Source: Ostreococcus lucimarinus
Taxonomy: Eukaryota
Reading direction: 5' to 3' (one strand)
DNA: 64,000 bases
NCBI GenBank assembly: GCA_000092065.1
Contig: CP000583.1
Shown here: positions 5,236-62,580 of the stretch, piece by piece
Layout: every line of letters begins with the position of its first letter
Position numbering within the stretch: position 1 is the first letter of the stretch
Program-made: the position numbers and the translations under genes
Notes under the pieces: generated by a model
Database searches by the model: none
Seen by the model: the letters and a program-made list of their open reading frames with translations, nothing else
What the model was told of the DNA's origin: nothing

Positions 5236-5301
5236 CGTCGTCGTCGTCCTCGCGCGCGGACGCGCCGTCCCGCGCGCGTTGCGCGGCGAAGTGTCGTCAC
5301 A

Positions 5302-6252: not shown

Positions 6253-6390
6253 TAGCGCGTTGTAGTCTTACTGTCTTACTGAAATGATTCGTGAAACCGT
6301 TCGTGTTAGACGTCTCGGCGTCACGGTGCTCGGCGTCACGGTGCTCGTCGTTGTTGTCTATGTAGCTGTGATATCACACGAGGGAGGTGT

Positions 6391-8088: not shown

Positions 8089-8208
8089 CCGCGTGCGGTG
8101 CCAGTGAGAAAACGAGGCGCATTCGCGCGCGCTTTGGTGGCCGCAGAGCGCGCCTCGCGACGCGCGGGACGCTCGAGGGCGCGCGCGCGCGAAGAAAAAA
8201 ATCCCATC

Positions 8209-46168: not shown

Positions 46169-49100
46169 CTAATTTTGTTTCGCGTTGGCGTTCACGAACG
46201 GCGAGAGCGCGCTCGAAAGCCAACGCGCGGCGTCTTCGTCGGCGCATCGCACGACGATCGACGTCGGCGTCGCCGCGTCTTCGCCGCGGAAAGTCTCATC
46301 GACGTCGTGGAATGATTGATCCTGTTCTCGATGCATCCACCCGAACGCGAATCCATACGCTCGAGCGAACACGCTTTGCGTCTGTGCGAGGGACACGCGC
46401 GTCGATCGCTCCGCTCTCGCGGCGTACACGGAGACGCGATTCCCGTCGCGAAGGACGCCGGAGATGTCCACAAATCTCACGCTCGAGCGCACGTACGGCG
46501 CGTTGACGTCCGATCGATGAACGACGAGCAGTTTCCCACCCGTCAAAACACACATATCGTGCGACGGCCACATCAACGAAGCGGTGGCGACGAATCGTTC
46601 TCGTTTTTCGCTCGAAGCGAGTTTCGCGAGCGTCTCCCTGCCGATGGCCTCTATGAGATGGTACGGCCGTATGGGGTCCATGTATGACGTGGGAAGCGGG
46701 CGACGCGGGCGCATGTACTCCCCTTCGAACGTTTTCGCCGCCGTGAAAAGTCGAAGTCGCCTCGCGCTGAGCTCGGCGCCATCCAGAGCGGCGGCTAAAA
46801 CGCGCGTCAACGCGCTCATCAAGCCGATGACGGAGCCTTCAACCAACCCTCTCACGCCGGCCAGTTCCAGGCCATGCAGTGGTCCATCGATGACATCGAA
46901 GACGACGCGACCGACAGTGTCAAATATGCGCGCCACAAACGTCACCGTCGCCTGCTTCTCGAGATCTTCGACCGTGCCGAGTCTTCTCGGTCGAAGCGAA
47001 AATCGCCGACTGGCTTGGGCGACTTCCAGCGCTTCGAGCCAACCATCGACGACGTCACGCGCTTGCGATAGCGCCGTCTCTCCAGAATGCGCAAACGCAG
47101 CTGTGAGTGCCATTATTACTCGTGGCAACGCGGTTGTCGCCGAACCTTGATGCATCTCATCGAAAGCTTCGATGATTTCATCCCAAAGCCGGCGCGGATC
47201 GCCGAGTAAGGAGTTATGCGCCCAAAGAGAACCGGCGACGATGACGGCTTCCCTAGCGAAATGACGCGCGGCCATCATGCTGACATCTGCCGCCATGAGT
47301 GACGGCTGGTTCATGTGAAAGCCTCGCAGTCGCAAATTCGCGCGATCAACGCCGGCCAACGCTCGTACGGCGACCGGTAATCCGGGTAAACGAGAAAACG
47401 ACAGGACGAGCTCGACATCGTTTATGATGAGTTCTTGTAAGTATACGGACGTAAGCGCGCCCACAGTTTCGCCTTCCAAGCTGCGCTTACGTGCACCGTT
47501 CGCTTTTATCGTCGGTTTCGCAGGAGGCAAGAGCAACTCTGCGTGACGGACGCACGGCGCGATGGCGCGCGGCACGGATTCAATCAATTCATCGTGTAAA
47601 TCGACGAATGCTGGCGCCAAATCAACCTTCAACGAACGTATGACGGGTAAACCATTCAACTTCTGCACCCGTCCGTGCACCTGCAACTCGAGTGCCTCTC
47701 GGGCGCTTTGATGCCGCTCGGGTATGGCTAACACGATTGGTCGTTTCGCTTTGCTGCTTGTGTGATCGACTCGTGCGCTGTGCACGCGGACGGCGCTCTT
47801 GAACTCGGAACCGTCCGCGAGCACCTTCACCGTAATACCACTCACGCGTCCGTACAGCAACTCTTCGTGTCCATGGATCGCACTCACACCAATCCAACCA
47901 CACTTGAACGACACGTTGACGGGGGCTCCGGGGCGTTGGGGCGTCTTCGTCGATAGTCGCGGGCGCTCGGGCGTATCTGCGACGCGACTGCTCAGCGCGT
48001 CTTCAATGATGACAGAGCACATCGGTCCCTCTCTCGTTACCATCACGCGCAAGCACCGCTTGTCTGTCGTCACCACGCTATACGACAGAGTGCGAGTGAT
48101 GTCAAGCGAAATCGGTTCGCCCAACGAAAGATCGCCGTACCCAATGACGAGCGCGCGAGGAAGAGACGAGTCTTCAATCAGTCGCTCTTCGCTCTCCTTG
48201 GGCGCGAGCGTCGCGCGCGCATCATCGGCACCGAGCTGGTGATACCAGATTGACGCGTTCGAGTGGTTCTCGATGGAATGCATTCCGAGCGCGCCGTCGA
48301 TCTCAGTCGGCCGCGCGATGCGAATGTCAAACGTTCCGTCGTCGTTTTCTAGAATCGAGACCGTGATAGTTTCCGTGTGCAACGTACTATCTCCGCCGAG
48401 GTGACGCATCTTCAGTATAGAAGCAGTATGCTCAGGCACATGCACTGGCTTAGACCATTCGAAAACTCCCTTCTCCGGTCTGAACATGATCACTTTGGGC
48501 ACCTTGGAGCGCATGTCAAACCAACGCAGCGGCGTCGCCGAGCGGGGCTGCAACAAATCCACGCTCTCCGTGCCGCCGTGTCGGATCCAAACGGCTTCGT
48601 CTAGCGTACTTTTGATGAGAAACTTTGGTCGTATCATGATCTTTGCCGTCTTGCACAATTTATCGGTCGAAACCATGGAAGCAGTCACGACGAATACATG
48701 CTCGCAAACATCTGAGCCGGCGTCTGAGGGTAGCCTGATTTCAATCGGCAGACCCGTCGGATCGATCCTAAAAGGGCGACTCCACGCGCTTGAAGACTTG
48801 AGCCGAATACGAATCCGTGGACGCCGTTTGATTGACTTGCGCCAATGCGCTGAACTACCGAGAACGGTCGCGCGTTGATCCAGTGAATCCTCGTCGTCGA
48901 CGCCGTAGTCCACGCCGTGGTCCGTCGATACCGTCTGGCGTCCGGGCGTTGATGGCGTGAGAAGCGTGACCGAATCGGCATTCAATCGCAACGACGACTG
49001 TCGCATCAACAACGGGCTTGTTTGTGACAACACATTCGTCGAAGAACTCATACGTCGAAGAGACGGCAAAGCTTGATTCTGCGCAAGTCGAGCGAAAGGA

Positions 49101-52100
49101 GAAGCCGGCGCCGGGGGAGTCTCAAAGTTCTCAGCGTCTTCTATGAAGAGACGGTTCGGAAGCGGTGAGTTCGTTCCTTGGCGTTCTGCATCGGGGTTTG
49201 ACTCGAAAACTTCGATTTCACTCTGCACAGACTCCTCCATCTCAGTGCCATAGAGCATGTCTTCGAGCACGATGGCGCAGGATGTTGAATTCAGCACGAC
49301 GAGTGGCGCGGCGCAGTACAAGGTCCGTGACTGCGTCGCTTCATCGATGTAAAACGTAAAGCGCAAGGAAACGGCTTGTGAAGACGATTTGTCACCTCCG
49401 TCGTGAATCCTTTTCGTATCTCGATCAACATGGTAAATCTCACCGTTTGCCTGACACTTGGCGTTTTTCAAAGCCATCGTGTATTCCGGCACGACGAGCT
49501 CTTCGCACGGCGCATATCCAACGATTTGTGCAGATACCGAAGCAGACCAAGTGGGGTGAGAGGCTGTGAATAAAGTCGACTCACCCGGATTCACCACATG
49601 TGACTCTATGCGCGCATCATGGCCAAATGCATTCCTAGCGCGGCAAGTGACCACCATCTGCAGCGGTAGCGTGTTGACAAATTTCAGCGGCGCGCTCAGC
49701 GCCAGCTGCACGCGTTTGAGTGTCTCGTCGCGAGTCACCGTGAACGCACACGTGTACGGATCAGACGAAGCAATACTATGTTCTTTCGTCACCGAACAAA
49801 GCGATGCCTCGATAGCATCTTCTTTCGCGACCAAATCAGAAAACGCGACAAAGGTACTCCAATTGTGACGACGTCGCCAGAACGCGTCCCCAAAGGGTGA
49901 GCGTGGAGTGGCGTTGGTTTTCGAACGATGGAGCGGGCTGAGGAAAGGTGACCCAGCGGAAGCTTCAGAATCATCCACCTCATCCACGGAGATTTCTCCA
50001 AAATCTTCATCCGGCGACACCACGCGCCATTGCACGTTTTTAGCTAAGCGCAGGGGTATCGGAAGCCACACACTTTCGCCGGGAAGTATCGGGCCGAAAA
50101 TCGTCGCCGGCAGCGTCGCACTTTGCTGAAAGCACATCACGATCGGGGCGTTCGTGCCATTCAAAATTGCGACGTCCGAACGAAGCAATAGTTCATATCG
50201 ATTCACCTTGTTCGAGCAAGGGCCGATCTCCGCGATGACACGCGCGCAGGAACCGTCCACCATCTGTGCTTCGTATTCCAGCAAGCTCGTCTCCTCGCCA
50301 ATGGTGTCGAGAGAAATTGCCTCGTCTATGTCGACCTGGATGTCTTCAAATTCGAGCGACACGTGAGGAACGCGTTCTTGCGTCGATTCCGATCGATGGC
50401 GCACGCTCGCGCCGTCATCTTCATCGTCATCATTGATCGGCGATGCCCAGTACGAGGCCCCTCGCTCTATGACGCGGTTGGTTTTGCACGCACGATTTTC
50501 CTCGCGCCGCTCAAAGTGCATAACGTTTGTGTCACCCGCGATAGTTTTACCCGCCCCGGCGGACGTGATTTCGCCACCACGAACTAACGTGAGCGCATAA
50601 GCGACGTTGAATCCAGTGGCGTTCGTCATCTGATAAGTGCAAGGTCCAAAAGTCGTCGACTGTTCGAGATCCGCGATGGGCGCTTGCGCCGCTTGCGCGA
50701 TGATTTGCGTCTTGAGAAGCGCTTCGACGACACTATGCGACATTGTTATTTCGATCCCAGCCGCAACGTTGATGTTGACACTCTCAAATAGAAACTCTGG
50801 CGTGAGCTTGATTGACGTCGAAACGCGCATGGGTTCAAGAATGGGTTCCCAAGCCGCTTTCACTGGATGCAAGTAGTCCATCTCTACATCCATCGATGCG
50901 CTTCCATCCACGCCAGAGCTCGAGCTCTTAACATCAACACGCGCGTCCGTCATCATGACTTGCAAAACTGGCACAACGATGTGGACCTGTGCGTGTTCCA
51001 GGCACGCACTCATGGACTCTACGTTGATGGAAAGATCGAACTCGTGTGGGCTTGAACTCGAGGGCAATTGATCATACGCCTCTATGGCGTTCAAAGTTGC
51101 CGGTTGCGCGAGGATCAGCGCCGAAACTTCTTGTATCAAGTGTAAAGAAACTTCGTTTGCGCGTGCGCGCATCTCATGTACAGTAACGTCCATTTTCGGC
51201 ACGACTTTGCGCGCAAAGTGTTCAGGAGATGTGGGCGGCAAAGTCATTCTACTCGAAAGTCCAATAACTTCGGCGAGCGTAAACATGATTGATGAACCTT
51301 CGAGATCATCTTCATCCTTGCAGTATCCTGTCTCAAGCGTGAACTCATCCAGTGTGAACGTCGCATTGACGCAAGATCCCGCAGTGAACTCATTCAAAGT
51401 ACCCGATTGCCGAGTCTTCAAACGTACGATACGCAGCGGCGCATGGCGCTCGCTCTCTGAACGCCAAGGTAGTTGTACTGTCCAAGTTTCCGTGCGAAAG
51501 TTCGCAGACACGAGAGTTAAAGACAAAGGTGATATCGATGGTGCAGATGTCGTTGTCGACGCGGTCAACACAGGCATTGCCTGTCTCACGCCATGCAAGA
51601 CACTCGTTCCCGCAATGATGTACGGCGCGTTGAACTCGACATCGCCTTTCCCAATGAGCAACTCGGACTTTACTGAGCCTTGGGCGTACATGGCATCCAT
51701 TTTGACAGCCGCACCGGACTCACTCGATATATGAAGCAACGTCGTCGGGTGTTCGATACTTTTGCGTGTGCAAACTTGCAGATCAATAGAGTCCACTCGT
51801 AATTCAGCGAGATGGCCGTCTTCTCGCGGACTCGCGCGCCCCGTCACGTCGAAAAACGTCAACGAAATTTCATCCGCTTCTCTAGCGCTCAACCTGATTC
51901 GTTTCACATTCACGTCGACGGAAGGAATTGAAAACACTTTGGCGTCAGTGATCCCAGGAGAAGCTATAGGTGAACTCTTAGTCAGAGAGGGCATCTTTGG
52001 AATCGATTCCGAGACGACGACCAGTCGCCGCACGTCTGTGGGGGTAATTTCAGCGCCAATACTCCCCACCTGCACCTTCGCCGCGTTTGAGGCGCTCCCG

Positions 52101-55100
52101 AAAGAATGAGTAAAATGTACATCCTCGACATCGAGTAATGAAGTAGAAAACTCGGCGTTGAGAATAGAGAGTAACATTCTAGGGAGCTCAAGTTCCACGT
52201 GCGAGGCATTGCCTCGAATCTCCATGGCACGCGTCGTGAGCGCAACCGCTTCCTTTTCGCCCGACTCTTCAAAGAGCTTGAACGACATGGGTTCAATGGA
52301 GCCGTGTAAAAATAGTGACAACGAGTCTGCGATATCGAACGTCGCTACACAACTCCACGCCCTGTCGAACTCACCACGGACGGAACGACTCTGAATAGGG
52401 CTCGCGACGTGCAGACGTTCACCAAAGAACTTCTTGACGTCTTTCGTAAGGCGGGCAAACTCTGATAGCGTTTCGAGTACATTTTGCGTAACTCTTACGT
52501 CGATGGCTCCCAATTCGATCGTACCCGCGATTCGTGCGCAGACGTGAGCTTTCAGTATAGAGTCCTTCGGCGAGCAACGCACAATTTCTGTTTGCGCCGA
52601 ATCAGCGTCCATGTGCACGCCAGATACCGTACCTACGCTTGATTTCATCCTCCAATCGTCGCTCGAACCCTTCGTGGCGATACTGATGTCCGTGACCGTG
52701 TAATGCATTCGGCCTGATGCGCTATTCAAATTCAGCGCGATCTTTTCTAAGTTGAATCGAAGCCCAGAATCCACGGCGAAGGGCGTCGAACTCGCAGTTG
52801 TCTGTACAGAGACGTCTGCAAAGGCTTGGACCACGTGAACCACCGCCGCGACGCTTACCGGATCGAAGTTGAGTTCGATCGGTTCCAAGTCTACCATCGT
52901 CACATCGGAATCGAATATTGTCGCATCGTTCACGACAGTAAGTTTCACTCCTTCAGCTATAGCAGCGGAGGCGTTTGCCGCGGTCATCCACGCGCCGTCG
53001 ACGTGTGCGAAACTACGAGTTTGCAAAACAAATTCAGACAACTCTTCCAGGGCGCGCCACGCTTCCTTTGCATCGTAAGCATAATCCATCATCGCTGAAG
53101 CTTCGTCTACCAATCGATCAAACGATCCATCATCGCGTGATCGCGAACCGTTTTCCTGGCAAAAGACAATCTTTTCCGCGCCAAACGCCAACGCAGCCGA
53201 CGTCTCCACATCGATCGATGGCGGTGCAGTTTGAGCGGGTACGACAAGTAAGGGTGAATCGATCTCAACGAGCACAGGTATCGCTTGTATCCCGTCGCCA
53301 AGGAGCTTGATCATCTTCAACCTGCACTCTGGCGAGCGATTGTTCAACCCCAAAGTCGCTCTTCGTAGTGCTTGCCAGTAAGGTCCATCTCTGATACTCG
53401 CGAAACCCGCGAGCACTTTGGCCGTTGACGGTCGAATAGCCATACCGTGTGGCGCCATCTTCACGTGCACGTTTACGAGCACGTCCAGCGTCGCGCACGC
53501 ACTCGGATTCAACTTGATCGTAACCGCTCGCTCGCCATCAGTTTCTCGAGACCAAATCATATCCTCAGCAACACCCGAGCTCGAGTCCTCAGCGTGCACG
53601 CGATCGACGTGTATCTGCGTCTCACTGACGACACCTTCGTCATCGGCGAAGAGAGCACCATGCGCCAGTGATATGTTATTCGCCGTGAACCGTAATCGAT
53701 TCTCCGCCGCGTCTCGAATCGTCATCGAGACGCCGGGAATCTCCACAGATACTTCTGGCTCAAAGTCACCGACTGATTCTGATGCCGACGCATATTTTGA
53801 TGACACGTTGACATAGTTGTAAGCTTTGGAGATGTAACTCGTGCTCTTGGCATAGAGATAGCTCGTGAGACTCGTTGACGTCTGTTTTGACTCTGGCATT
53901 CTTCTTATCTGCTCCGCGGTCTCCTCCGCATCATCGCCGCTGGTGTCGAATATATCCGCGGCGCTGTATGACGAGTGATACGAAGGAAACATGCTATCCA
54001 TCATATCATCTTCTGTCTCTTGAAGACTCGCCACCTTGCGCTCGACAAGCGATGTGATGAGCTCAACGTCATCCGCCGTGAGCCTCGTCTCAAACTTTTG
54101 TAAATGTTCAGGCATCGTGATTCTCTGCCCACGTTTGCGCTCGACGCACACCTCGACGTACGCCTCGAGCTGTGAGCGCCCATGTCTAAGTCTATCTAGC
54201 ATTCGAGCGCGATGGTGCTCTCCGCGCGGCACCGTCGCCCTGACGGCGTATCTCCACCAATCGACGGGATTCTTCGTCTTTGGTCTACGTTCGCCGTGCG
54301 CTCTTCTCTTCGTCCACATATCAATCTCATCGCGCACCAAAAGCAACATCTGCGCCTGCGAAGCGCTAATATTCGTTTCTAGAACGTCTCGAACGTCTAT
54401 CTTCGCGACGTATTTCGATGCCTTCGGGCGAAGGAATCTCGCGCGCCGCGCGCGTTTGCGCAAGTGCACGTCCATTCGCACGCGACCGTTCGGTCCCACG
54501 ACATCGTGCTGCCCCGACGTCTCACCATCATCCACGATGAGCGACAGTCCTGTTATTTCGACGCGCTTCATCGCGTCTCCGCTGAACGACGCGTCGCCCG
54601 CGTCGTCGTCGTGCTCGGAAGTCTTTGTTTTCTTTCGCTCTGGCTCGCCGTCGTTCGCGTCCTCGTCATCCTCCGCTGACCGAGCGCTCGACGTCTTCCC
54701 TACGCTCTTCATCGTAAACCGCTCGATGCTTCCTCGCAATCGCCCGACGTCACCCTCCCGCCCCGAACCCGTCGCCTTCGTCGCGTACGTCGCGCTCGCG
54801 CGTCGACACTCCACCGATAAACGCTCAAACGCCGCCGCGAACCACGCGTTGGACCACGCCGACCCTTTCACCATCTCTCGCGCGTGCGTCTCCATCGCGC
54901 TCGCGATGTGTTCCATCGCTTTCTCCCTCGCGTCCCGTCGTTCGCGCAGCGCATCCGAGTCGACCCCATCACCCGAGTCGTCTTCGTCTTCTTCGTCGTC
55001 GTTCGGCGCCTCCGCCTCGACGTCGACGCCTTCCACGCGCACCCGAAGCGTCTCCTCTCGCTTCCCGAACACCGCGTAGTGCACGTCGATCGTCTCGATG

Positions 55101-55288
55101 CGCACTCGCGTGAGTTTTATCCCCAGGTTCAGCTCGCGATTGAGCGCGTCGCAGTTCACGGACACGTTTCGCAGCGAAAGTTTTCGTCGCAGCAGGGCGA
55201 TGCGCAGGGTGTCGGAATTGACGCCGTCGAGGTAGCGATTGAGCGCGCGCGCGAGCAAAGGCGCGAGTATGGTGTGCGCGCCGATCAT
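46169..55288 (-). CDS. VPS13: VPS13-like bridge-like lipid-transfer protein (chorein-N family), 3039 aa in a single exon
   Basis: N-terminus MIGAHTILAPLLARALNRYLDGVNSDTLRIALLRRKLSLRNVSVNCDALNRELNLGIKLTRVRIETIDV matches the chorein-N pattern (LLNRFLG.YV.....QL.IG...G...L.NL.L...AL..L.LP). Size and extended-beta composition throughout are typical of VPS13. Uninterrupted 9.1-kb ORF. Confidence 0.75.
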   Translation of the reverse strand: MIGAHTILAPLLARALNRYLDGVNSDTLRIALLRRKLSLRNVSVNCDALNRELNLGIKLTRVRIETIDVHYAVFGKREETLRVRVEGVDVEAEAPNDDEEDEDDSGDGVDSDALRERRDAREKAMEHIASAMETHAREMVKGSAWSNAWFAAAFERLSVECRRASATYATKATGSGREGDVGRLRGSIERFTMKSVGKTSSARSAEDDEDANDGEPERKKTKTSEHDDDAGDASFSGDAMKRVEITGLSLIVDDGETSGQHDVVGPNGRVRMDVHLRKRARRARFLRPKASKYVAKIDVRDVLETNISASQAQMLLLVRDEIDMWTKRRAHGERRPKTKNPVDWWRYAVRATVPRGEHHRARMLDRLRHGRSQLEAYVEVCVERKRGQRITMPEHLQKFETRLTADDVELITSLVERKVASLQETEDDMMDSMFPSYHSSYSAADIFDTSGDDAEETAEQIRRMPESKQTSTSLTSYLYAKSTSYISKAYNYVNVSSKYASASESVGDFEPEVSVEIPGVSMTIRDAAENRLRFTANNISLAHGALFADDEGVVSETQIHVDRVHAEDSSSGVAEDMIWSRETDGERAVTIKLNPSACATLDVLVNVHVKMAPHGMAIRPSTAKVLAGFASIRDGPYWQALRRATLGLNNRSPECRLKMIKLLGDGIQAIPVLVEIDSPLLVVPAQTAPPSIDVETSAALAFGAEKIVFCQENGSRSRDDGSFDRLVDEASAMMDYAYDAKEAWRALEELSEFVLQTRSFAHVDGAWMTAANASAAIAEGVKLTVVNDATIFDSDVTMVDLEPIELNFDPVSVAAVVHVVQAFADVSVQTTASSTPFAVDSGLRFNLEKIALNLNSASGRMHYTVTDISIATKGSSDDWRMKSSVGTVSGVHMDADSAQTEIVRCSPKDSILKAHVCARIAGTIELGAIDVRVTQNVLETLSEFARLTKDVKKFFGERLHVASPIQSRSVRGEFDRAWSCVATFDIADSLSLFLHGSIEPMSFKLFEESGEKEAVALTTRAMEIRGNASHVELELPRMLLSILNAEFSTSLLDVEDVHFTHSFGSASNAAKVQVGSIGAEITPTDVRRLVVVSESIPKMPSLTKSSPIASPGITDAKVFSIPSVDVNVKRIRLSAREADEISLTFFDVTGRASPREDGHLAELRVDSIDLQVCTRKSIEHPTTLLHISSESGAAVKMDAMYAQGSVKSELLIGKGDVEFNAPYIIAGTSVLHGVRQAMPVLTASTTTSAPSISPLSLTLVSANFRTETWTVQLPWRSESERHAPLRIVRLKTRQSGTLNEFTAGSCVNATFTLDEFTLETGYCKDEDDLEGSSIMFTLAEVIGLSSRMTLPPTSPEHFARKVVPKMDVTVHEMRARANEVSLHLIQEVSALILAQPATLNAIEAYDQLPSSSSPHEFDLSINVESMSACLEHAQVHIVVPVLQVMMTDARVDVKSSSSGVDGSASMDVEMDYLHPVKAAWEPILEPMRVSTSIKLTPEFLFESVNINVAAGIEITMSHSVVEALLKTQIIAQAAQAPIADLEQSTTFGPCTYQMTNATGFNVAYALTLVRGGEITSAGAGKTIAGDTNVMHFERREENRACKTNRVIERGASYWASPINDDDEDDGASVRHRSESTQERVPHVSLEFEDIQVDIDEAISLDTIGEETSLLEYEAQMVDGSCARVIAEIGPCSNKVNRYELLLRSDVAILNGTNAPIVMCFQQSATLPATIFGPILPGESVWLPIPLRLAKNVQWRVVSPDEDFGEISVDEVDDSEASAGSPFLSPLHRSKTNATPRSPFGDAFWRRRHNWSTFVAFSDLVAKEDAIEASLCSVTKEHSIASSDPYTCAFTVTRDETLKRVQLALSAPLKFVNTLPLQMVVTCRARNAFGHDARIESHVVNPGESTLFTASHPTWSASVSAQIVGYAPCEELVVPEYTMALKNAKCQANGEIYHVDRDTKRIHDGGDKSSSQAVSLRFTFYIDEATQSRTLYCAAPLVVLNSTSCAIVLEDMLYGTEMEESVQSEIEVFESNPDAERQGTNSPLPNRLFIEDAENFETPPAPASPFARLAQNQALPSLRRMSSSTNVLSQTSPLLMRQSSLRLNADSVTLLTPSTPGRQTVSTDHGVDYGVDDEDSLDQRATVLGSSAHWRKSIKRRPRIRIRLKSSSAWSRPFRIDPTGLPIEIRLPSDAGSDVCEHVFVVTASMVSTDKLCKTAKIMIRPKFLIKSTLDEAVWIRHGGTESVDLLQPRSATPLRWFDMRSKVPKVIMFRPEKGVFEWSKPVHVPEHTASILKMRHLGGDSTLHTETITVSILENDDGTFDIRIARPTEIDGALGMHSIENHSNASIWYHQLGADDARATLAPKESEERLIEDSSLPRALVIGYGDLSLGEPISLDITRTLSYSVVTTDKRCLRVMVTREGPMCSVIIEDALSSRVADTPERPRLSTKTPQRPGAPVNVSFKCGWIGVSAIHGHEELLYGRVSGITVKVLADGSEFKSAVRVHSARVDHTSSKAKRPIVLAIPERHQSAREALELQVHGRVQKLNGLPVIRSLKVDLAPAFVDLHDELIESVPRAIAPCVRHAELLLPPAKPTIKANGARKRSLEGETVGALTSVYLQELIINDVELVLSFSRLPGLPVAVRALAGVDRANLRLRGFHMNQPSLMAADVSMMAARHFAREAVIVAGSLWAHNSLLGDPRRLWDEIIEAFDEMHQGSATTALPRVIMALTAAFAHSGETALSQARDVVDGWLEALEVAQASRRFSLRPRRLGTVEDLEKQATVTFVARIFDTVGRVVFDVIDGPLHGLELAGVRGLVEGSVIGLMSALTRVLAAALDGAELSARRLRLFTAAKTFEGEYMRPRRPLPTSYMDPIRPYHLIEAIGRETLAKLASSEKRERFVATASLMWPSHDMCVLTGGKLLVVHRSDVNAPYVRSSVRFVDISGVLRDGNRVSVYAARAERSTRVSLAQTQSVFARAYGFAFGWMHREQDQSFHDVDETFRGEDAATPTSIVVRCADEDAARWLSSALSPFVNANAKQN

Positions 55289-55440
55289 GTGCGTCGATCG
55301 TGCGCCGCGCGCGCGGCGCGTGCGGCGCGTGCCGCGCGTGGCGCGCGAGAGAATGACGAAAGCGAAAAGTTCGTTGGTCGAGCGCGCGACGCGACGGGAC
55401 GGGACGGGACGCGGCGATGGAATAACATGAATGAATTACA

Positions 55441-56508
55441 TCACGAAGGCACGGGCACCGCGCCTGGGACGCGCTCTGCGTCTTCGTCTCCGGGCGCCAA
55501 CGCCTCGTCGATCTCGCGATCGCTCACGGGCGGCGGCGATTTGCCCTTGGCGACGTCATATCCTTTGCGGCGCTCGCGCGGCGCGGGACCGGTGGATACG
55601 ATGGAGTACGCGGCGTTTAAGACGTCGTATCGCGACGTCGTGAGCGTGCGGTTGGCGAACACGGCCGCACTGAGTCGTTTGGTGAAATCACCGCCGGGCA
55701 TTTTATCGCCCTCGTCGATGTCGATGTCTTGCATGCGAACGTCGAACGCGTTGTCCACCAAAGTCAACGCGTAGTCGGCTTGCACGACTTTACTCGTCGG
55801 CCCGTTTCCTCGCAATTCTCCCGTGCGCACGATGGTGAACGTCCATCCATCCGCGACACCGCCCGGTTTCACCGTTTTCGCCGCGCGGCGGCGTATCATG
55901 TCCTCGCACGCGACGCAATCGTCCAACGGCGCGCCGCCTCGAAACGTCTTGCGATTCATATACTTGAACGGATCGACGTCTCGCCGTTCGACGCCGATTC
56001 TCGACATCAACACCACGCGCCGCAATCTCGGGAACCGACCGCCGTCGATCGCCTCACAAAACGTCTCCACGCACGCCTTGAGCTTCTTCGAGCTCTCCTC
56101 CGCGAATATCACGCACGTCGTTCGCTCGCGCGTCGCCGTCTCGCCTCCCAGCGTCTCCCCGAGCTCCGCCGTCTCCACCCCTTGTTCGTCGAGCATCTCC
56201 AGCGTCTTCGCGTGCGGGTACACCAGCGTCGTCGATCGCACGTCTCGCGGATTTCGCACGCCCTCGAACGCCTCGCGCGGCAGCGCCGCGACGACGCGCA
56301 CGTCGCTCGACTTTTCGTTTCGCTTCAGCTCGACCGCCGACGTTTGCGCCAGCCGTTCGAGCGCGCCGGTGACGACGACGACGTCGCGCGCGGCGTCGAG
56401 CGCGCGCGGCGAGACGCGCGCGCGTCGCGGCGTCGAGCGCGCGTCCCGCGCGCGTCGCGACGACGCGCGCGGCGTCGCGGTCGACGGCGCGCGGCGCACC
56501 GACGCCAT
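55441..56508 (-). CDS. Hypothetical organelle-targeted protein with a possible NAD(P)-binding Rossmann N-terminus
   Basis: ATG at 56508 (MASVRRAPSTATPRASSRRARDARSTPRRA presequence), then DVVVVTGALERLAQ. The rest has normal composition. No family assigned. Confidence 0.45.
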   Translation of the reverse strand: MASVRRAPSTATPRASSRRARDARSTPRRARVSPRALDAARDVVVVTGALERLAQTSAVELKRNEKSSDVRVVAALPREAFEGVRNPRDVRSTTLVYPHAKTLEMLDEQGVETAELGETLGGETATRERTTCVIFAEESSKKLKACVETFCEAIDGGRFPRLRRVVLMSRIGVERRDVDPFKYMNRKTFRGGAPLDDCVACEDMIRRRAAKTVKPGGVADGWTFTIVRTGELRGNGPTSKVVQADYALTLVDNAFDVRMQDIDIDEGDKMPGGDFTKRLSAAVFANRTLTTSRYDVLNAAYSIVSTGPAPRERRKGYDVAKGKSPPPVSDREIDEALAPGDEDAERVPGAVPVPS

Positions 56509-56519
56509 CGCGCGACGCA

Positions 56520-57845
56520 ATGGCGACGCGCGTCGCCGGCGCACCGCGCCCGCGCGTCGTCGCGCGCGCGTCGCGACGCGCGACCGTCGCGCGTTCGAGC
56601 GACGGCGCGTTCGACTGCGCGCACTGGCCGCGGTGCGCGGGATGCGTCGACGTCGACGCGCCGCTGCGACCCGAGGCGGAGGCGCGCGCGCGCGCGTACT
56701 TTGCGTCGCTGGACGCGCGCGCGGGCGAGACGGGCGAGACGCGCGAGACGCACGAGACGTATCGCGGACGCGCGACGCGATGGCGCGTCAAGGCGAAGCT
56801 CGCGGCGCGCGCGCACGAGGGCGAGACGCGACTGGGGCTGTTCGCGCGAGGCTCGCACGCGCTGGAGCCCATCGACGACGCGAGCGGGTGCGCGGTGTCG
56901 GCGATCGCGGTCGAAAGAGCGATGGCGCTGGTGCGAGAGGTGTGCGCGTCGATGGATGTGAAAGGGTACGACGAAACGACGGGGAACGGGGAGCTGCGGT
57001 ACGCGCAAATCGTGGCGCAGACGAGAACGGCGGGACAGTGGGACGCGGCGAAGGACGAAGACGCGCGAGCGGCGATTTCGTTGGTGTGGAACGCGCGGAA
57101 GATGACGCCGCGCGCGATGGCGGTGTGCGAGGAAATCGCGCGAAGGGGTGGAGATTTCGTGCACGGGACGTGGGTGAACGCGCAAGACGCGCGAAATAAC
57201 GTGATTTTTAACAACGACGGGTGGCACCACGCGACGGGCGAGCGAGAAACGCACTCGTACACGCCCAACGGTGCCAAGGTGTTTTATCTGCCGGGAAGCT
57301 TCATGCAAGCCAACGCGGAGGCGTACGGAGAGTTGCTCAAGCGCATGCCGCGACACGTGCCGAAGAACGCGCGCGTCGTCGAGATGTACGCCGGCGTCGG
57401 CGCCATTGGTTTTTCGCTTCTGACGAACGACGCGCTCGGCGTGAAGAGCTTGCGATGCGTGGAATCGTCGAGCGCGGTCGCCGAAGCGTGGGAACGCACG
57501 CGTGGCGAGTTACCAGAAGATTTGCGAGGTCGAGCAAGTTTGCAAGTCGAAAAGGCGGAGCGCATCGCCGTCGAATCGACGAAGGATTGCGACGTTCTCA
57601 TCGTCGACCCGCCTCGAAAGGGACTCGACGCCAAGCTGCGCGCCGTGCTCACCGACGTCGATGGTCTGAGCGATGACTTGCAAACTTTGCTTTACGTGTC
57701 GTGCGGATTTGAATCATTCATGCGCGACTCGGACGAGTTATTGGCGAGCGGCGTGTGGCAAATCCGTCATCACGAGAGCTTCGTGTTCTTCCCAGGCACG
57801 AATCACATCGAAATCTTTGCCGTGTTTTCGCGCACGCCTTATTAG
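56520..57845 (+). CDS. RumA/TrmA-family RNA (uracil-C5)-methyltransferase with an N-terminal Cys cluster. Probably organellar.
   Basis: N-terminal CAHWPRCAGC Fe-S-type Cys motif. SAM-MTase core VVEMYAGVGAIGFSL...VLIVDPPRKGLD...LLYVSCGFESFMRDSDEL...FFPGTNHIE matches the TrmA-family motifs DPPR.G, YVSCNP..L.RD and FP.T.H.E. Starts 11 bp from the divergent upstream gene. Confidence 0.75.
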   Translation: MATRVAGAPRPRVVARASRRATVARSSDGAFDCAHWPRCAGCVDVDAPLRPEAEARARAYFASLDARAGETGETRETHETYRGRATRWRVKAKLAARAHEGETRLGLFARGSHALEPIDDASGCAVSAIAVERAMALVREVCASMDVKGYDETTGNGELRYAQIVAQTRTAGQWDAAKDEDARAAISLVWNARKMTPRAMAVCEEIARRGGDFVHGTWVNAQDARNNVIFNNDGWHHATGERETHSYTPNGAKVFYLPGSFMQANAEAYGELLKRMPRHVPKNARVVEMYAGVGAIGFSLLTNDALGVKSLRCVESSSAVAEAWERTRGELPEDLRGRASLQVEKAERIAVESTKDCDVLIVDPPRKGLDAKLRAVLTDVDGLSDDLQTLLYVSCGFESFMRDSDELLASGVWQIRHHESFVFFPGTNHIEIFAVFSRTPY

Positions 57846-57905: not shown

Positions 57906-59153
57906 TTACTCCTCCTTCCTTGGGGGAAGAATGAATATGTTTGAGTGCATCCCGAGACATCCCGTGACTTGCGCGCAAAGCGTCGCGCTTCGGTGAAGCA
58001 ACAAAAATAACGCGGCGCCGAGGAGGATGCCGCCGATGAACATGTTGCCCGCGGGCACAAATGTCGTCATGATCATGATGAACCCGCTCAACCAGTTGAA
58101 CAGCGGCCAATCGGGGTCTGAAACGCGCAGGCGCATGATGCTCATCTCGGCTTCGGCGAAGAGAAGCATGCTCGTGGCGTGCGCCAACGCCAAGTTTGGC
58201 GCAAAATACAAGCACACGCCGTGAAACAACTCGTTGACGATGCAAAACAACGCAATACGCGTCGGATTACGATGCTTTGGCCAGTGTGGTGGCACTTCTT
58301 TTGCCGTGACGGTGCGATAAAACGTCATCGCGCGAGATCGCACGCCGAACAACGCCCCGCCGTCGACGAGCAGGCGCACCACGCCTCGCTCGCCGATGAT
58401 GGGTAGAGTGATCGTAAACGCATTCATCGCGTCGCTCCCAACGAATCCGAAGACAATCATACTTATTTGCAACAGGATCTGCATCTCTTGCACGTCAAAA
58501 GCGGTGTTCACAGGTAACAATCCCGTGTACGTGCTCGAAACCGTGTCGACGGCGAAAAAAATCCGGCTCGACGTCATCATCATCACCGCGAACGCTCTCG
58601 CCGCGGGCGTCGCGATACCGACGGCCAATAAATCAACGAAAATAATCCCGTACACGCACGTGCAAATCGCATCGCATCCGTGATCGACGACTTCTCCCAA
58701 CGGCGACCCGCTCTTCGTTCGTCTCGCTTGCTTACCGTCGATGCCGTCCGCCGTCTGATACGCAAACATTAAAACAGCGCTCACCGCGTACATCCACGAC
58801 GGCGCGGTGTGCGCCAGCACTGGCGTGTGCGTCCAATACAACGCGTACGTCACCATCACCAACATTAATCCGCCGAACGTCAACGCGTTCGGCGCCACCC
58901 ACAGCGGACACCACCGTTCGACGACGTACGTCCACCATCGCTCCAAAAACAGCTTCTCAAACGACGTCGACGGCGGTGATGTATACTTGTACGAGTGCAC
59001 CTGCGCGCACGTGCGCTCGGACGCGCCCACGTGCGCGCGTTTCGCTTCGCGCTCATTTTTTTGGGCGTAGCACACCAAGTCCTCGTTCGACCCATCGTGT
59101 CCACCGCGCGTCAGCACATCGAGGCGCGCGCGTCGAACGGCGGCGATCGGCAT
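57906..59153 (-). CDS. CDP-alcohol phosphotransferase (choline/ethanolaminephosphotransferase, CPT1/EPT1-like)
   Basis: Catalytic motif DGIDGKQARRTKSGSPLGEVVDHGCDAI matches D-G-x2-A-R-x8-G-x3-D-x3-D. N-terminal WTYVVERWCPLWVAPNALTFGG and multiple TM helices. Confidence 0.85.
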   Translation of the reverse strand: MPIAAVRRARLDVLTRGGHDGSNEDLVCYAQKNEREAKRAHVGASERTCAQVHSYKYTSPPSTSFEKLFLERWWTYVVERWCPLWVAPNALTFGGLMLVMVTYALYWTHTPVLAHTAPSWMYAVSAVLMFAYQTADGIDGKQARRTKSGSPLGEVVDHGCDAICTCVYGIIFVDLLAVGIATPAARAFAVMMMTSSRIFFAVDTVSSTYTGLLPVNTAFDVQEMQILLQISMIVFGFVGSDAMNAFTITLPIIGERGVVRLLVDGGALFGVRSRAMTFYRTVTAKEVPPHWPKHRNPTRIALFCIVNELFHGVCLYFAPNLALAHATSMLLFAEAEMSIMRLRVSDPDWPLFNWLSGFIMIMTTFVPAGNMFIGGILLGAALFLLLHRSATLCAQVTGCLGMHSNIFILPPRKEE

Positions 59154-59317
59154 CGCGGCGGCTTTCGATCTTCGCGTCCGCGTCGCTTCGGGTCCGCGCG
59201 CGCGACGTCGGCGTCGTCTTCTGCCGTCGCGTTCGGCGGGACTCTCGTCGTTCCAGTGTCAACGAGATCTCATCGCGCGCCCTTCGTCCTCTGCGCGCGA
59301 ATCCGGGACGCGGCGCG

Positions 59318-61231
59318 ATGGCAGGCGGTGTTGCGGTGGCGTCGGGAGAGATCCGGCACGGCGATAGGGTCTTCAGTGGGAACTCTGGCCCCGCGCAGCG
59401 CGAACAACCCATAAACAAAGAACTCATCGCGCACTTCAAAAGCAAGGGAGACAGTGTGTCCTGGGGCATCGCTGCAAGCATAGAGAACTACGAGGAGGAT
59501 ACGAAGAGGCCAGTGTTGTCGGGCGCATGCATCGCGTCGCTCTACGACCAAGAGACCGAGCGCGAGTTGGCAGAGGAGGTGGAGAACAGAATTGAGCGGG
59601 TGCTAAGCGACGACGCAGCCTTGTTGAAAATACGTCGATATTTGAAGACCTTCCACGCGGACGAGCGCGAATGGGATGTGAGAACGTGTGCAGCGGCGGC
59701 TCGAGGGGGCAACTTGGAGTGTTTGAAATATCTGCACGAGCACGGGTGCGCGTGGGATAAGAGTGCGTGTGAAGCGGCGGCTCAAGGTGACCACTTGGAG
59801 TGTTTGAAATATCTGCATGCGAACGGGTGCACATGCGATGAGAGTGCGTGTTTAGCAGCGGCTGAAGGTGGTCACTTGGAGTGTTTGAAATATCTGCACG
59901 AGCACGGGTACCCATGGAGTGAGTGGGTGAGTTTAGCAGCGGCCGAAGGCGGTCACTTGGAGTGTTTGAAATATCTGCACGAGCACGGGTGCGTATGGAA
60001 TAAGAAAACGTGTCGAGCAGCGGCTCGAGGTGGCGACTTGGAGTGTTTGAAATATCTGCACGAGCACGGGTGCGCGTGGGATGAGAGTGCGTGTGAAGCG
60101 GCGGCTCGATGTGGTCATTTGGAGTGTTTGAAATATCTGCATGAGCACGGGTGCCCGTGCGATGAGAGTGCGTGTGAAGCGGCGGCTAGCTGTGGCGACT
60201 TGGAGTTTTTGAAAGACCTGCACGAGCACGGGTGCCCATGGGATGAGAGTGCGTGTGAAGCGGCGGCTCTAGGTGGTCACTTGGAGTGTTTGAAATATCT
60301 GCACGAGCACGGGTGCGTATGGAATAAGAAAACGTGTCGAGCAGCGGCTCGAGGTGGCGACTTGGAGTGTTTGAAATATCTGCACGAGCACGGGTGCGCG
60401 TGGGATAAGAGTGCGTGTTCTGCAGCGGCTGGACGCGGTCACTTGGAGTGTTTGAAATATCTGCACGAGCACGGGTACCCATGGAGTGAGTGGGTGAGTT
60501 TAGCAGCGGCCGAAGGCGGTCACTTGGAGTGTTTGAAATATCTGCACGAGCACGGGTGCGTATGGAATAAGAAAACGTGTCGAGCAGCGGCTCGAGGTGG
60601 CGACTTGGAGTGTTTGAAATATCTGCACGAGCACGGGTGCCCGTGCGATGAGAGTGCGTGTGAAGCGGCGGCTAGCTGTGGCGACTTGGAGTTTTTGAAA
60701 GACCTGCACGAGCACGGGTGCCCATGGGATGAGAGTGCGTGTGAAGCGGCGGCTCTAGGTGGTCACTTGGAGTGTTTGAAATATCTGCACGAGCACGGGT
60801 GCGTATGGAATAAGAAAACGTGTCGAGCAGCGGCTCGAGGTGGCGACTTGGAGTGTTTGAAATATCTGCACGAGCACGGGTGCCCGTGCGATGAGAGTGC
60901 GTGTGAAGCGGCGGCTAGCTGTGGCGACTTGGAGTGTTTGAAATATCTGCGCGAGCACGGGTGCCCGTGCGATGAGAGTGCGTGTGAAGCGGCGGCTCTA
61001 GGTGGTCACTTGGAGTTTTTGAAAGACCTGCATGAGCACGGGTGCGCATGGGATAAGAGTGCGTGTTCTGCAGCGGCTCGAGGTGGTCACTCGGAGTGCT
61101 TGAAGTACTTGCACACGCACGGGTGCCCCGGGAATAAGCGTGCGTCTGAAGCGGCGGCTGGAGGTGACGTCATGGAGTGTTTGAGTTTGAAGTACTTGCA
61201 TAGATCGCTCAAACGAAAGATTTACAGGTAG
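59318..61231 (+). CDS. Ankyrin-like repeat protein: about 18 tandem 27-aa units of HLECLKYLHEHGC(P/A)WD(E/K)SAC.AAA.GG
   Basis: ATG at 59318. The first 58 codons of the ORF-track entry overlap the CPT gene and were excluded. The repeat shares the AA..GHLE.LK.L...G core with ankyrin repeats but is 27 aa rather than 33 aa. Confidence 0.75.
   Translation: MAGGVAVASGEIRHGDRVFSGNSGPAQREQPINKELIAHFKSKGDSVSWGIAASIENYEEDTKRPVLSGACIASLYDQETERELAEEVENRIERVLSDDAALLKIRRYLKTFHADEREWDVRTCAAAARGGNLECLKYLHEHGCAWDKSACEAAAQGDHLECLKYLHANGCTCDESACLAAAEGGHLECLKYLHEHGYPWSEWVSLAAAEGGHLECLKYLHEHGCVWNKKTCRAAARGGDLECLKYLHEHGCAWDESACEAAARCGHLECLKYLHEHGCPCDESACEAAASCGDLEFLKDLHEHGCPWDESACEAAALGGHLECLKYLHEHGCVWNKKTCRAAARGGDLECLKYLHEHGCAWDKSACSAAAGRGHLECLKYLHEHGYPWSEWVSLAAAEGGHLECLKYLHEHGCVWNKKTCRAAARGGDLECLKYLHEHGCPCDESACEAAASCGDLEFLKDLHEHGCPWDESACEAAALGGHLECLKYLHEHGCVWNKKTCRAAARGGDLECLKYLHEHGCPCDESACEAAASCGDLECLKYLREHGCPCDESACEAAALGGHLEFLKDLHEHGCAWDKSACSAAARGGHSECLKYLHTHGCPGNKRASEAAAGGDVMECLSLKYLHRSLKRKIYR
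59690..61150. repeat. Tandem array of near-identical 81-bp coding repeats with duplicated higher-order blocks of about 250-490 bp
   Basis: cacttggagtgtttgaaatatctgcacgagcacgggtgc recurs every 81 bp. The block 59880..60080 repeats at 60470..60660. The block 60148..60400 repeats at 60640..60890, almost base for base. Confidence 0.85.
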
Positions 61232-61254
61232 CGGAAAAATTACGCGAATTGAAA

Positions 61255-62580
61255 TCAAATACCTACGAAATCGGCGTACGCCGGACAGAGCCTACGACAG
61301 TGGCGAAATAAACGCATCGCTTCCATGGCGTCGCCCGAGGTCTCCGCGTCCACGGCGCGCTTGTGCAGGGCGTACGCCTCGGCGCCGACGGCGTCGGCGA
61401 ACGCCGGCGGCTCGCGAGCGTACATGACGTCGGTGCGAATGATGAATTTCACCGCGCCCTCGCCCACGGGCGCGCCCTCGTGCGGAATGTCTTGTCGAAA
61501 CACCAGAGCAGTGCCTCGCGCGCACGGCGCGGCGTCGGCGATCCATTCATCCGGCCAACGGTATCGATCGTCCTCGTCGCGCACGAATTTCGACGGCTCA
61601 AAGTCGCTCGGCGGCGCGAACATCGACGTCTCCCCACCTCGCGCGCAATCGTTCAGGTACACCAAGACGCTATAAAACGAACGCGTATTGAAATCTTCGA
61701 TCGTCGCCCCGTCGGTGTGCGGTGAAAAGTGCCCGCGTCCAGAGTATCGATTAAACAACAAGTGTTCGTTCACGCCTCGCGCCACCCATCGTCCGCGCGC
61801 CCCCGCGCCGTGCGTCTCATCCTCCTCAATCGTGATCTCCGGCGTCGCGTGCGGTTTCAATCGCGCCCACAGCGCTTCCGCGACCGTCTTCGACATCACC
61901 TCCACCGTATCCGCGTTCCTGAACGATTTTCTATTCCTCGCCTCCGCGTCCTCGTGCCAAAAGCTCAACCGTCCCGACCGCCGCGCGGCGTCCACCAGCC
62001 TTTCGCACTCCGTCGCCGTCAGCACGTCCCGCGCGACGAACGCATCGAGCGGGCTCGCGCACCTTCGCGCGCTCGTCGTCGCTTCGTCACCGCGTCGCTC
62101 GACCGCGTCGTCGAACGGTTTCGCGTCTTCGGCGCACGCCTTCTCCACGGGCGTCACCGCGCTCTTATCGACGTCCACGAACGCGCGCGACATCGCCTCG
62201 ACGACGGCGTCGACGACGGTCGCGTCGCCGCCGCCGTCGTCGCCGCCGCGCGCGTCGACGCTCGACCGTTCGGTCGACCGTTCGCGGCGCGGCGCGGCGA
62301 GCTGTGCGGCACTGTCGAGCGCGATGGAACGCGTCGCGCGCGCGTCGTCGCGCGCGGCGACGGTCGGGGCGTCGCGTGCGGGGACGGGGAACGCGCGCGC
62401 GACGACGGCGTCGCGCGGCGCGCGCGCGACGACGGCGCGGCGCGCGCCGGCGGCGGCGTTTCTTTCGTCGGTGTCTCGAAAGTGTCGTCGCGGAAGGACG
62501 ACGACGACGGGAGCGCTGGCGATTCCGGACACCGCGTTCACGGTGGCGACGATGGCGGTGATGCCGATGTACGCGCTCAT
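61255..62580 (-). CDS. Prolyl 4-hydroxylase-like 2OG-Fe(II) oxygenase. The start is uncertain: ATG at 62580 or internal ATG at 62193.
   Basis: Catalytic core LFNRYSGRGHFSPHTDG (HxD) ...FYSVLVYLND...GGETSMFAP...VFRQDIPHEGAPVGEGAVKFIIRTDVMY carries the second His and the basic residue. The N-terminal 130 codons are A/R/V-rich and overlap the divergent ABA4 start. Confidence 0.65.
   Translation of the reverse strand: MSAYIGITAIVATVNAVSGIASAPVVVVLPRRHFRDTDERNAAAGARRAVVARAPRDAVVARAFPVPARDAPTVAARDDARATRSIALDSAAQLAAPRRERSTERSSVDARGGDDGGGDATVVDAVVEAMSRAFVDVDKSAVTPVEKACAEDAKPFDDAVERRGDEATTSARRCASPLDAFVARDVLTATECERLVDAARRSGRLSFWHEDAEARNRKSFRNADTVEVMSKTVAEALWARLKPHATPEITIEEDETHGAGARGRWVARGVNEHLLFNRYSGRGHFSPHTDGATIEDFNTRSFYSVLVYLNDCARGGETSMFAPPSDFEPSKFVRDEDDRYRWPDEWIADAAPCARGTALVFRQDIPHEGAPVGEGAVKFIIRTDVMYAREPPAFADAVGAEAYALHKRAVDAETSGDAMEAMRLFRHCRRLCPAYADFVGI

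Follow-up and report, generated by a model that had tools for sequence, protein, structure and literature searches.

Whole-unit variation in an array of putative hairpin-less ankyrin repeats encoded by an accessory gene of Ostreococcus

Introduction

The Mamiellales carry an expanded gene family, pico-PLAZA HOM000035, whose members were described in the Bathycoccus prasinos genome paper as having C-terminal ankyrin repeats and an N-terminus without a database match (PMC3491373). Its copies number 149 in Bathycoccus, 56 and 9 in Micromonas, and 17, 6 and 6 in Ostreococcus, the 17 being those of O. lucimarinus, and no function is known for it (PMC3491373). This paper concerns a gene of comparable architecture that lies in a 64,000-nucleotide stretch of O. 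lucimarinus (contig CP000583.1, assembly GCA_000092065.1), hereafter the window, and that encodes a long tandem array of 27-residue repeats. Our literature search on the motif of these repeats, or on a 27-residue class of ankyrin repeat, returned nothing relevant; only PMC3491373 describes the wider family.

The array is the C-terminal part of an accessory, lineage-restricted Ostreococcus gene. Taking the evidence together, we think it probable that this part of the protein is a hairpin-less ankyrin solenoid whose units are turned over by out-of-register exchange. An initial annotation, made from the letters of the window, had drawn attention to the array; the orphan module that precedes it, the accessory status of the gene and the alternation of the array with other content at the same locus are additions to that account.

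Results

An array of 81-bp units with exact multi-unit duplications

Tandem Repeats Finder reports one tandem array at 59671-61184, with a period of 81 bp, 18.7 copies, 81% matches, 0% indels and a score of 1813, and a separate repeat search returned 18 copies with every spacing exactly 81 bp. The coding register runs from 59672 and gives 18 full units of 27 residues followed by a degenerate nineteenth, in agreement with the original count of about 18 consecutive units. The unit consensus is WDESACEAAARGGHLECLKYLHEHGCP, of which the motif first given for the array is a version in another phase. On average, two units are 83.2% identical in nucleotides and 71.8% in amino acids (0.73 in the comparison with sister-species arrays considered in the Discussion), and five pairs of units are identical.

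Three multi-unit blocks, of 255, 204 and 175 bp, each occur twice with 0 mismatches (Table 1), as compared with the 83% mean identity of the units, and thus form higher-order repeats; further exact matches of 123 and 132 bp lie inside the array. With units labeled by type, the order along the array is 1 2 3 S N 6 C L N 10 S N' C L N' C* 17 18 19, and the duplicated blocks correspond to C L N, S N and N C. The matches between block copies end inside or beside the invariant segment LECLKYLHEHG. Exact repeats this long within 1.5 kb cannot have arisen by chance. The exact multi-unit duplicates show very recent duplication or homogenisation, as the initial annotation had proposed on seeing the blocks recur, and the coordinates that it gave for them were off by only about 5-35 bp.

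Ankyrin homology and predicted fold

Pfam assigns the array to ankyrin families by wide margins: Ank_4 scores 197.7 bits (cut-off 22.7; E-value 9.7e-60) and Ank_2 175.8 bits (cut-off 27.3; E-value 2.5e-52), and Ank_5 (153.6 bits, cut-off 27), Ank (106.5, cut-off 21.1) and Ank_3 (81.3, cut-off 22.3) also exceed their cut-offs. The early description of the units as ankyrin-like is therefore borne out by the Ank_4 score. A sequence search of PDB matched designed ankyrin repeat proteins (DARPins), consensus ankyrins and FEM1. In these alignments every repeat has a 6-residue gap, exactly at the beta-hairpin (GADVNAxDxxGxTPLH against GCPWDE------SACE). All units are exactly 27 residues long, as against about 33 in the canonical repeat. 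The TPLH motif is absent, with S/T-A-C-E/R/L in its place, and the turn motif GGHLECLKYL is present.

AlphaFold2 was run on residues 1-334 together with 24 relatives. For residues 120-334 the predicted local distance difference test (pLDDT) values are 81-95, and a pair of helices of 9-10 residues recurs each 27 residues. The helix pairs are joined by 6-residue coil linkers with no strands in the repeat region, so that the model shows coil where the alignments show the hairpin residues of the finger loop deleted. When Foldseek was used to compare the model with PDB, the top matches were Espin1-AR, ankyrin-1/B, DARPins and FEM1, with E-values of about 1e-8 and template modeling (TM) scores of 0.45-0.53, lowered because the N-terminus is disordered. 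A helix-turn-helix solenoid, which the initial annotation expected of a structure prediction, is thus what AlphaFold2 predicts, as a solenoid of antiparallel helices, and the nearest solved folds are ankyrin domains. On the alignments and this model, the unit appears to be a hairpin-less ankyrin repeat of 27 residues.

Site-specific constraint on the units

Differences between units cluster at unit positions 1-7, 11-14 and 27, which fall in the loop, where helix 1 begins and in the turn between the helices. The ratio of nonsynonymous to synonymous polymorphism (pN/pS) among units is 0.93 at these variable codons versus 0.21 at the scaffold codons, and the reading frame stays open across 19 units. 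That the array might be a non-coding satellite is ruled out by its homology, its conserved frame and this site-specific constraint. Variable positions 11-12 correspond to the randomised positions 13/14 of DARPins, as mapped from the PDB alignments, and the other variable positions map by alignment around the deleted hairpin and at the His of TPLH. Because the variable positions match DARPin binding positions or surround the deleted hairpin, the array most likely acts as a modular protein-binding surface, to judge from the alignments.

At unit position 24, His (CAC) occurs in 17 of the 18 units, and the relatives examined mostly have Asn. This array-wide substitution, as read from the aligned units, seems to indicate homogenisation.

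Unit number in natural populations

An exact look-up of the 637-residue protein in the protein collection gave no record, and alleles of the locus were reached through its flanking genes rather than through the protein itself. Hundreds of metagenome contigs encode both flanking proteins without any change, and their flanks match the window at about 99.9% identity. The distance between the two flanking genes served as the measure of an allele (Table 2).

Table 2. Forms of the locus between the two flanking genes
Source	Distance between flanking genes	Content
Window	2101 bp	18 full units plus degenerate unit
L004 (957-kb contig)	2110 bp	18 unit anchors
L008	1615 bp	6 units fewer (486 bp)
L005, L009	1291 bp	10 units fewer (810 bp); mutually different
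L002	1156 bp	Psf3 replacing array
L006 (962-kb JGI contig)	528 bp	N-terminal module only
L003	191 bp	includes 100 Ns
L007	144 bp	gene absent

Scanning the DNA of JGI and NCBI metagenomes brought in further alleles, of about 12 and about 13 units, and protein clusters include versions with 2-6 units. Alleles therefore differ by whole units, that is by multiples of 81 bp, as in the shortenings of 486 and 810 bp and the forms with about 12 and 13 units, a spread to which assembler collapse surely contributes. The first four units and the terminal unit are common to all ankyrin alleles. The shorter alleles hold 21-, 31- and 51-mers not found in the window, and whole unit variants likewise missing from it, namely CVWHESACEAAALGGH, PWSEWVSLIAAEGGH, SVAARCGH and CVWDEIACRAAARGGH. 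Because the shorter alleles carry k-mers and variants that the window lacks, collapse of one allele is insufficient to explain them. The unit count of the window is supported by L004, an independent contig of nearly the same length at the locus.

The region had been flagged from the outset as a likely hotspot of assembly collapse, and contigs with nearly identical flanks do range from 2 units up to 18, or show a run of Ns in place of sequence. The locus is prone to collapse in assembly and is also genuinely polymorphic. In L006 the whole array has been lost and the N-terminal module kept, leaving a 121-residue open reading frame (ORF), and the junction does not fall at a multiple of 81 bp.

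Psf3-bearing and empty alleles

In one class of allele the array gives way to another coding sequence. The first 514 bp, comprising the upstream region and the N-terminal module, are the same and are followed in frame by a GINS Psf3-like ORF. This form was found on contigs from different samples and assemblers, including L002 and L010-L018. The encoded protein, P0151, is named GINS subunit 3 by JGI; Pfam gives no match, and its likeness to Psf3 orthologues was recognised by visual comparison. The Psf3 sequence of L002 and L010-L018 is truncated at the C-terminus and carries a 27-bp tandem duplication at its start (YYDVNDFFT/YYDVNDFLA). Chimeric assembly was considered as a source of these alleles and rejected, since at the right junction only 12-17 bp are common to them and the window allele, and P0151 is present in 14 contigs.

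In a third class (L019 at 5300-6900, L043 and protein P0318), 1.5-4 ankyrin units separate the module from a full Psf3. The join reads …EAAAGGDV-M-RAYYDV… and is in frame in L043 and P0318. Two peculiarities of the terminal unit in the window (61130-61231, GGDVM…SLKYLH), 'GGDVM' and 'SL', coincide with both boundaries of the Psf3 insertion, which suggests that this unit may descend from, or have exchanged with, a Psf3-bearing allele. Past the Psf3 fragment of L043 (…AAFKD) there is an abrupt switch to AT-richer, unrelated sequence, possibly an insertion or a chimeric contig.

A HAD hydrolase gene and a LON-substrate-binding/RING gene flank Psf3 in the nearest abundant group (P0217), and they do so too in a single more distant relative. 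The Psf3 of the ankyrin locus is rare and only 69-73% identical to that of the abundant group; from this placement and divergence we read it as a putative ectopic, diverged second copy. Several Psf3-bearing contigs of the abundant group (L020 at 8013-8609, L030, L031, and L034-L036 from about 5519) carry a separate small 27-residue ankyrin gene. It encodes 198 residues with 4-5 units, another N-terminus and a basic tail, adjoins the LON/RING gene and lies 2.4 kb from the native Psf3.

The empty allele, L007, is identical to the Psf3 allele of L002 once the 1012 bp that separate its two 21-bp direct repeats are removed (Table 1). It may be either an empty site, in which case the insertion brought a duplication, or a deletion between the repeats. 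This allele was seen in one contig, together with scaffold L003, which is broken at the same two boundaries around its 100-N gap.

The N-terminal module and its partners

Pfam finds no family in the 118-residue N-terminal module. Among 1.84 billion proteins the module has only 24 representatives, of which the other 23 are 64-76% identical over the matched stretch. Its ratio of nonsynonymous to synonymous substitution rates (dN/dS) against copies in a related contig is 0.42-0.54. AlphaFold2 confidence for the module is low (pLDDT 33-74), too low for a fold search. A viral origin of the module was considered and set aside, as it has no relative in IMG/VR viral contigs. Relatives with the same module have 3-7 ankyrin units, and because these numbers are so much lower than the 18 of the window, the 18-unit state is taken to be an expansion.

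In related contigs a module 70-80% identical to this one precedes a variety of sequences: Hat1_N, the C-terminal winged helix of MCM6, an MCM3-like winged helix (a weak match), a Psf3 fragment and a treble-clef zinc finger (proteins P0190, P0193/P0195/P0198/P0199, P0207, P0212 and P0181; loci L037 and L038). The module is also followed by short ankyrin arrays and by unassigned sequence. These ORFs come from prokaryote-style gene finders, with which only in-frame joins are detectable. In the Hat1 case the contig ends within about 8 kb, and duplicated OTU genes are adjacent. The joining of the module to replication and chromatin fragments may reflect gene-fragment capture or read-through by the gene callers, as far as the predicted proteins go. 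The module, the ankyrin unit and Psf3 were also sought elsewhere in the 64-kb window, and no second instance of any of them was found there.

Distribution of the 27-residue class

A search for homologues of the protein matched 1982 of 8000 candidates scored. Named sources include Cymbomonas, Bathycoccus, the diatom Seminavis, Balamuthia and Heterococcus, and there are many from metagenomes. Of the 54 top homologues that allowed scoring, 51 have 27 residues as their dominant period. The 27-residue motif and period also occur in 26 giant-virus loci from IMG/VR (L045-L070), some in viral genomes of 1.8-2.5 Mb, sizes that suggest pandoraviruses. In giant-virus metagenome-assembled genomes and in these large viral genomes this subclass of ankyrin repeat is amplified, and one genome of 2.47 Mb has at least 10 loci.

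Other members of the class are comparably homogeneous: amino-acid identity within the arrays of P0002 and P0118 is 0.76-0.96, versus 0.73 here. The initial annotation had taken the 27-residue unit with its CPW loop for an unusual class, a view contradicted both by the prevalence of the period among homologues and giant-virus loci and by equal homogeneity elsewhere. The array belongs to a repeat class that is widespread among protists and giant viruses, and what is notable about the locus is its variable repeat number and the variable content that follows the N-terminal module.

The gene and its surroundings

Features of the locus are collected in Table 1. The Met at 59318 is the start chosen by gene callers on allelic metagenome contigs (MAGGVAV...), and it agrees with the start of relatives (MADGDTAEVELEEIRCGN...). 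At the other end the 637-residue protein reads …GGDVMECLSLKYLHRSLKRKIYR, and the C-terminus of relatives reads ...EHNSRKRKTSS.

Table 1. Coordinates of features in the window
Feature	Positions	Strand	Remarks
Complete ORF, 637 residues plus stop	59318..61231	+	N-terminal module, ankyrin array and basic tail; from ORF listing and translation
Orphan N-terminal module, 118 residues	59318..59671	+	limited to close relatives of the alga
18 full 81-bp units, each a putative 27-residue hairpin-less ankyrin repeat	59672..61129	+	from array structure, Pfam, DARPin alignments and predicted solenoid
Degenerate last unit (GNKRASEAAAGGDVMECLSLKYLH), basic tail RSLKRKIYR, stop	61130..61231	+	from translation
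255-bp block (about 3 units), copy 1	60143..60397	+	equals 60629-60883, 0 mismatches, offset 486 bp (6 units)
255-bp block, copy 2	60629..60883	+	
204-bp block, copy 1	59870..60073	+	equals 60437-60640, 0 mismatches, offset 567 bp (7 units)
204-bp block, copy 2	60437..60640	+	
175-bp block, copy 1	60518..60692	+	equals 60761-60935, 0 mismatches, offset 243 bp (3 units)
175-bp block, copy 2	60761..60935	+	
21-bp sequence CGTCGTCTTCTGCCGTCGCGT	59212..59232	+	once in window; twice, as direct repeat flanking 1012 bp, in Psf3 allele
Allele-variable segment, whole gene plus upstream region	59233..61242	.	missing from L007; alignments of L007 and L003 halt at 59232 and restart at 61243
CDP-alcohol phosphatidyltransferase, left flanking gene, allele anchor	57906..59153	-	exact protein on 391 contigs
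2OG-Fe(II) oxygenase family, right flanking gene, allele anchor	61255..62580	-	

The orthologue of the left neighbour in O. tauri is 70% identical, which points to a species of Ostreococcus other than O. tauri as the source of the window. The window is gene-dense and about 60% GC. GC content at third codon positions (GC3) is 0.60 in the array, low but near the 0.62-0.81 of neighbouring genes, so composition is uninformative and a foreign origin of the array was not retained on that ground. A VPS13-like ORF of 3039 residues on the minus strand (46169-55288) has a GC3 of 0.62, as low as that of the array, and because of this the low GC3 is no mark of foreign sequence. CG-rich low-complexity tandem repeats with periods of 9-37 lie near gene starts at 56357-56609, 55302-55347 and 62349-62458. 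The last of these sits in the 5' part of the 2OG-oxygenase ORF and encodes a stretch rich in Arg, Ala and Asp.

Discussion

In the mechanism we propose for the window gene, each 81-bp unit encodes a 27-residue ankyrin repeat from which the six-residue beta-hairpin 'finger' of the canonical 33-residue repeat has been deleted. What is left would be two short antiparallel helices and a six-residue loop (C-P/A/V-W-D/N-x-x) leading to the next pair, and 18 such units would stack as an elongated solenoid. The array would grow, shrink and be homogenised by out-of-register homologous recombination or replication slippage. Exchanges within the invariant LECLKYLHEHG segment would yield both the exact duplications of 2-3-unit blocks and the natural alleles that differ in the number and order of their units. 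The basic tail may target the protein to the nucleus.

Several points weigh against this account. The interior of L004, the only other full-length copy, is noisy and has frame-breaking indels, which could be polishing errors or signs of a pseudogene. A metagenome contig may combine sequence from co-occurring strains, and repeats tend to be collapsed in short-read assembly, so that the true spectrum of alleles is uncertain. Amino-acid identity within the array, 0.73, barely exceeds the 0.71 to sister-species arrays, and the case for recent exchange therefore depends chiefly on the exact DNA blocks; the signal of concerted evolution rests on those blocks and on the one array-wide substitution. 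The function proposed for the array derives from homology and prediction.

Assembly error could enter the interpretation at two levels. At the first, the unit count and exact blocks of the window would themselves be artefacts, a shorter or reordered array having been mis-joined or over-expanded. The exact repeats of 175-255 bp are longer than short-read k-mers, the allelic contigs from short reads span 2-13 units, one of them with its gap of 100 Ns at the array, and L004 differs from the window at 112 interior positions, indels included. Yet L004 was assembled independently and still has 18 anchors and a flank-to-flank distance within a few bases of that in the window, and a mis-join of noisy reads would not give units spaced at exactly 81 bp, free of indels and in an unbroken frame. 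We regard an artefact in the window as very unlikely. At the second level, the window would be correct and the differences among contigs purely the collapse of one fixed allele of 18 units, with no real polymorphism. Shorter alleles do retain the four unique units at the start as well as the terminal unit, with losses confined to the interior, just as collapse would have it, and the exact repeats exceed the k of 119-141. But two alleles of 1291 bp are unlike each other, and the shorter alleles contain k-mers of all three lengths, as well as unit variants, that are absent from the window. Contigs built on De Bruijn graphs hold only k-mers present in reads, and therefore other haplotypes of the array must exist in those samples. 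That collapse alone accounts for the variation is in our view unlikely.

A different question is whether the turnover of units is neutral. The array might be a fast-diversifying recognition surface in a host-virus or intragenomic conflict, with unit turnover under selection. Variation is concentrated on the putative binding face, where pN/pS is so much higher than in the scaffold; the gene, which is dispensable, has widely differing alleles; giant-virus genomes have amplified this repeat subclass too; and the 18 units of the window far exceed the numbers in relatives with the same module. On the other side, pN/pS does not rise above 1, the N-terminal module is absent from viral contigs, and neutral birth-and-death, in a gene that can be dispensed with, accounts for these data too. 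We find selection through conflict an improbable explanation of the turnover.

The forms found between nearly identical flanks, namely ankyrin, two Psf3-fusion, module-only and empty, invite a broader and more speculative proposal, to which we give little credence at present. The window gene may belong to a young family, known so far from Ostreococcus-like contigs only, in which a conserved upstream region and a module of about 100 residues are joined in frame to interchangeable, mutually unrelated C-terminal cassettes, short ankyrin arrays being one kind. The others may be pieces of replication and chromatin proteins, namely GINS Psf3, the MCM6 C-terminal winged helix, the MCM3-like winged helix and the Hat1 N-terminal domain. 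If true, a free-living eukaryote would possess a module-plus-cassette system that is mobile or driven by recombination, and this would be a previously undescribed route to chimeric genes in marine phytoplankton. The system might then yield replisome decoys or modulators, perhaps as part of a conflict with viruses.

Returning to the proposed exchange of units within an ankyrin solenoid, the locus provides a clean natural example of a folded repeat protein that is changing length now, with three duplication events that have yet to acquire any substitution and wild alleles of 2-18 units. It shows that a picoalgal genome, compact and haploid as it is, has dispensable genes of hypervariable structure in places other than the known outlier chromosomes, and in one allele class a diverged second copy of a replication gene is fused in frame to the same N-terminal module. 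A practical consequence is that the 1.5-kb array lies beyond short-read resolution, and most public metagenome assemblies of this abundant alga give it the wrong size.

Set beside HOM000035, the window gene shares the C-terminal ankyrin repeats and orphan N-terminus, and the Bathycoccus prasinos protein P0059 is among the homologues; the likeness is one of architecture. The description of the family in PMC3491373 is silent on a 27-residue period, on homogeneity within genes and on population polymorphism. With canonical ankyrin repeats and DARPins the unit shares the G-H-L-E-x-(L/V)-K-x-L motif of the helix-helix turn and, as predicted, the stacking of helix-turn-helix pairs. It differs in having 27 rather than 33 residues, in the deletion of the beta-hairpin finger, in the replacement of TPLH by (S/T)-A-C-x, and in Cys conserved at three positions per unit and a conserved Trp in the loop. 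The proteins of diatoms, Cymbomonas, Balamuthia and giant viruses with the motif GHLxCLKYAHExGCPW have the same period and motif, often in arrays equally homogeneous, whereas their N-terminal parts are different and their identity to the window array is only 35-59%. Finally, coding minisatellites and tandem-repeat proteins that evolve by unequal crossing-over differ in that the unit here is a folded structural repeat, with a scaffold under purifying selection, rather than a low-complexity spacer; the array shares with them head-to-tail in-frame units, higher-order blocks, whole-unit differences between alleles, and conserved edges around a dynamic interior.

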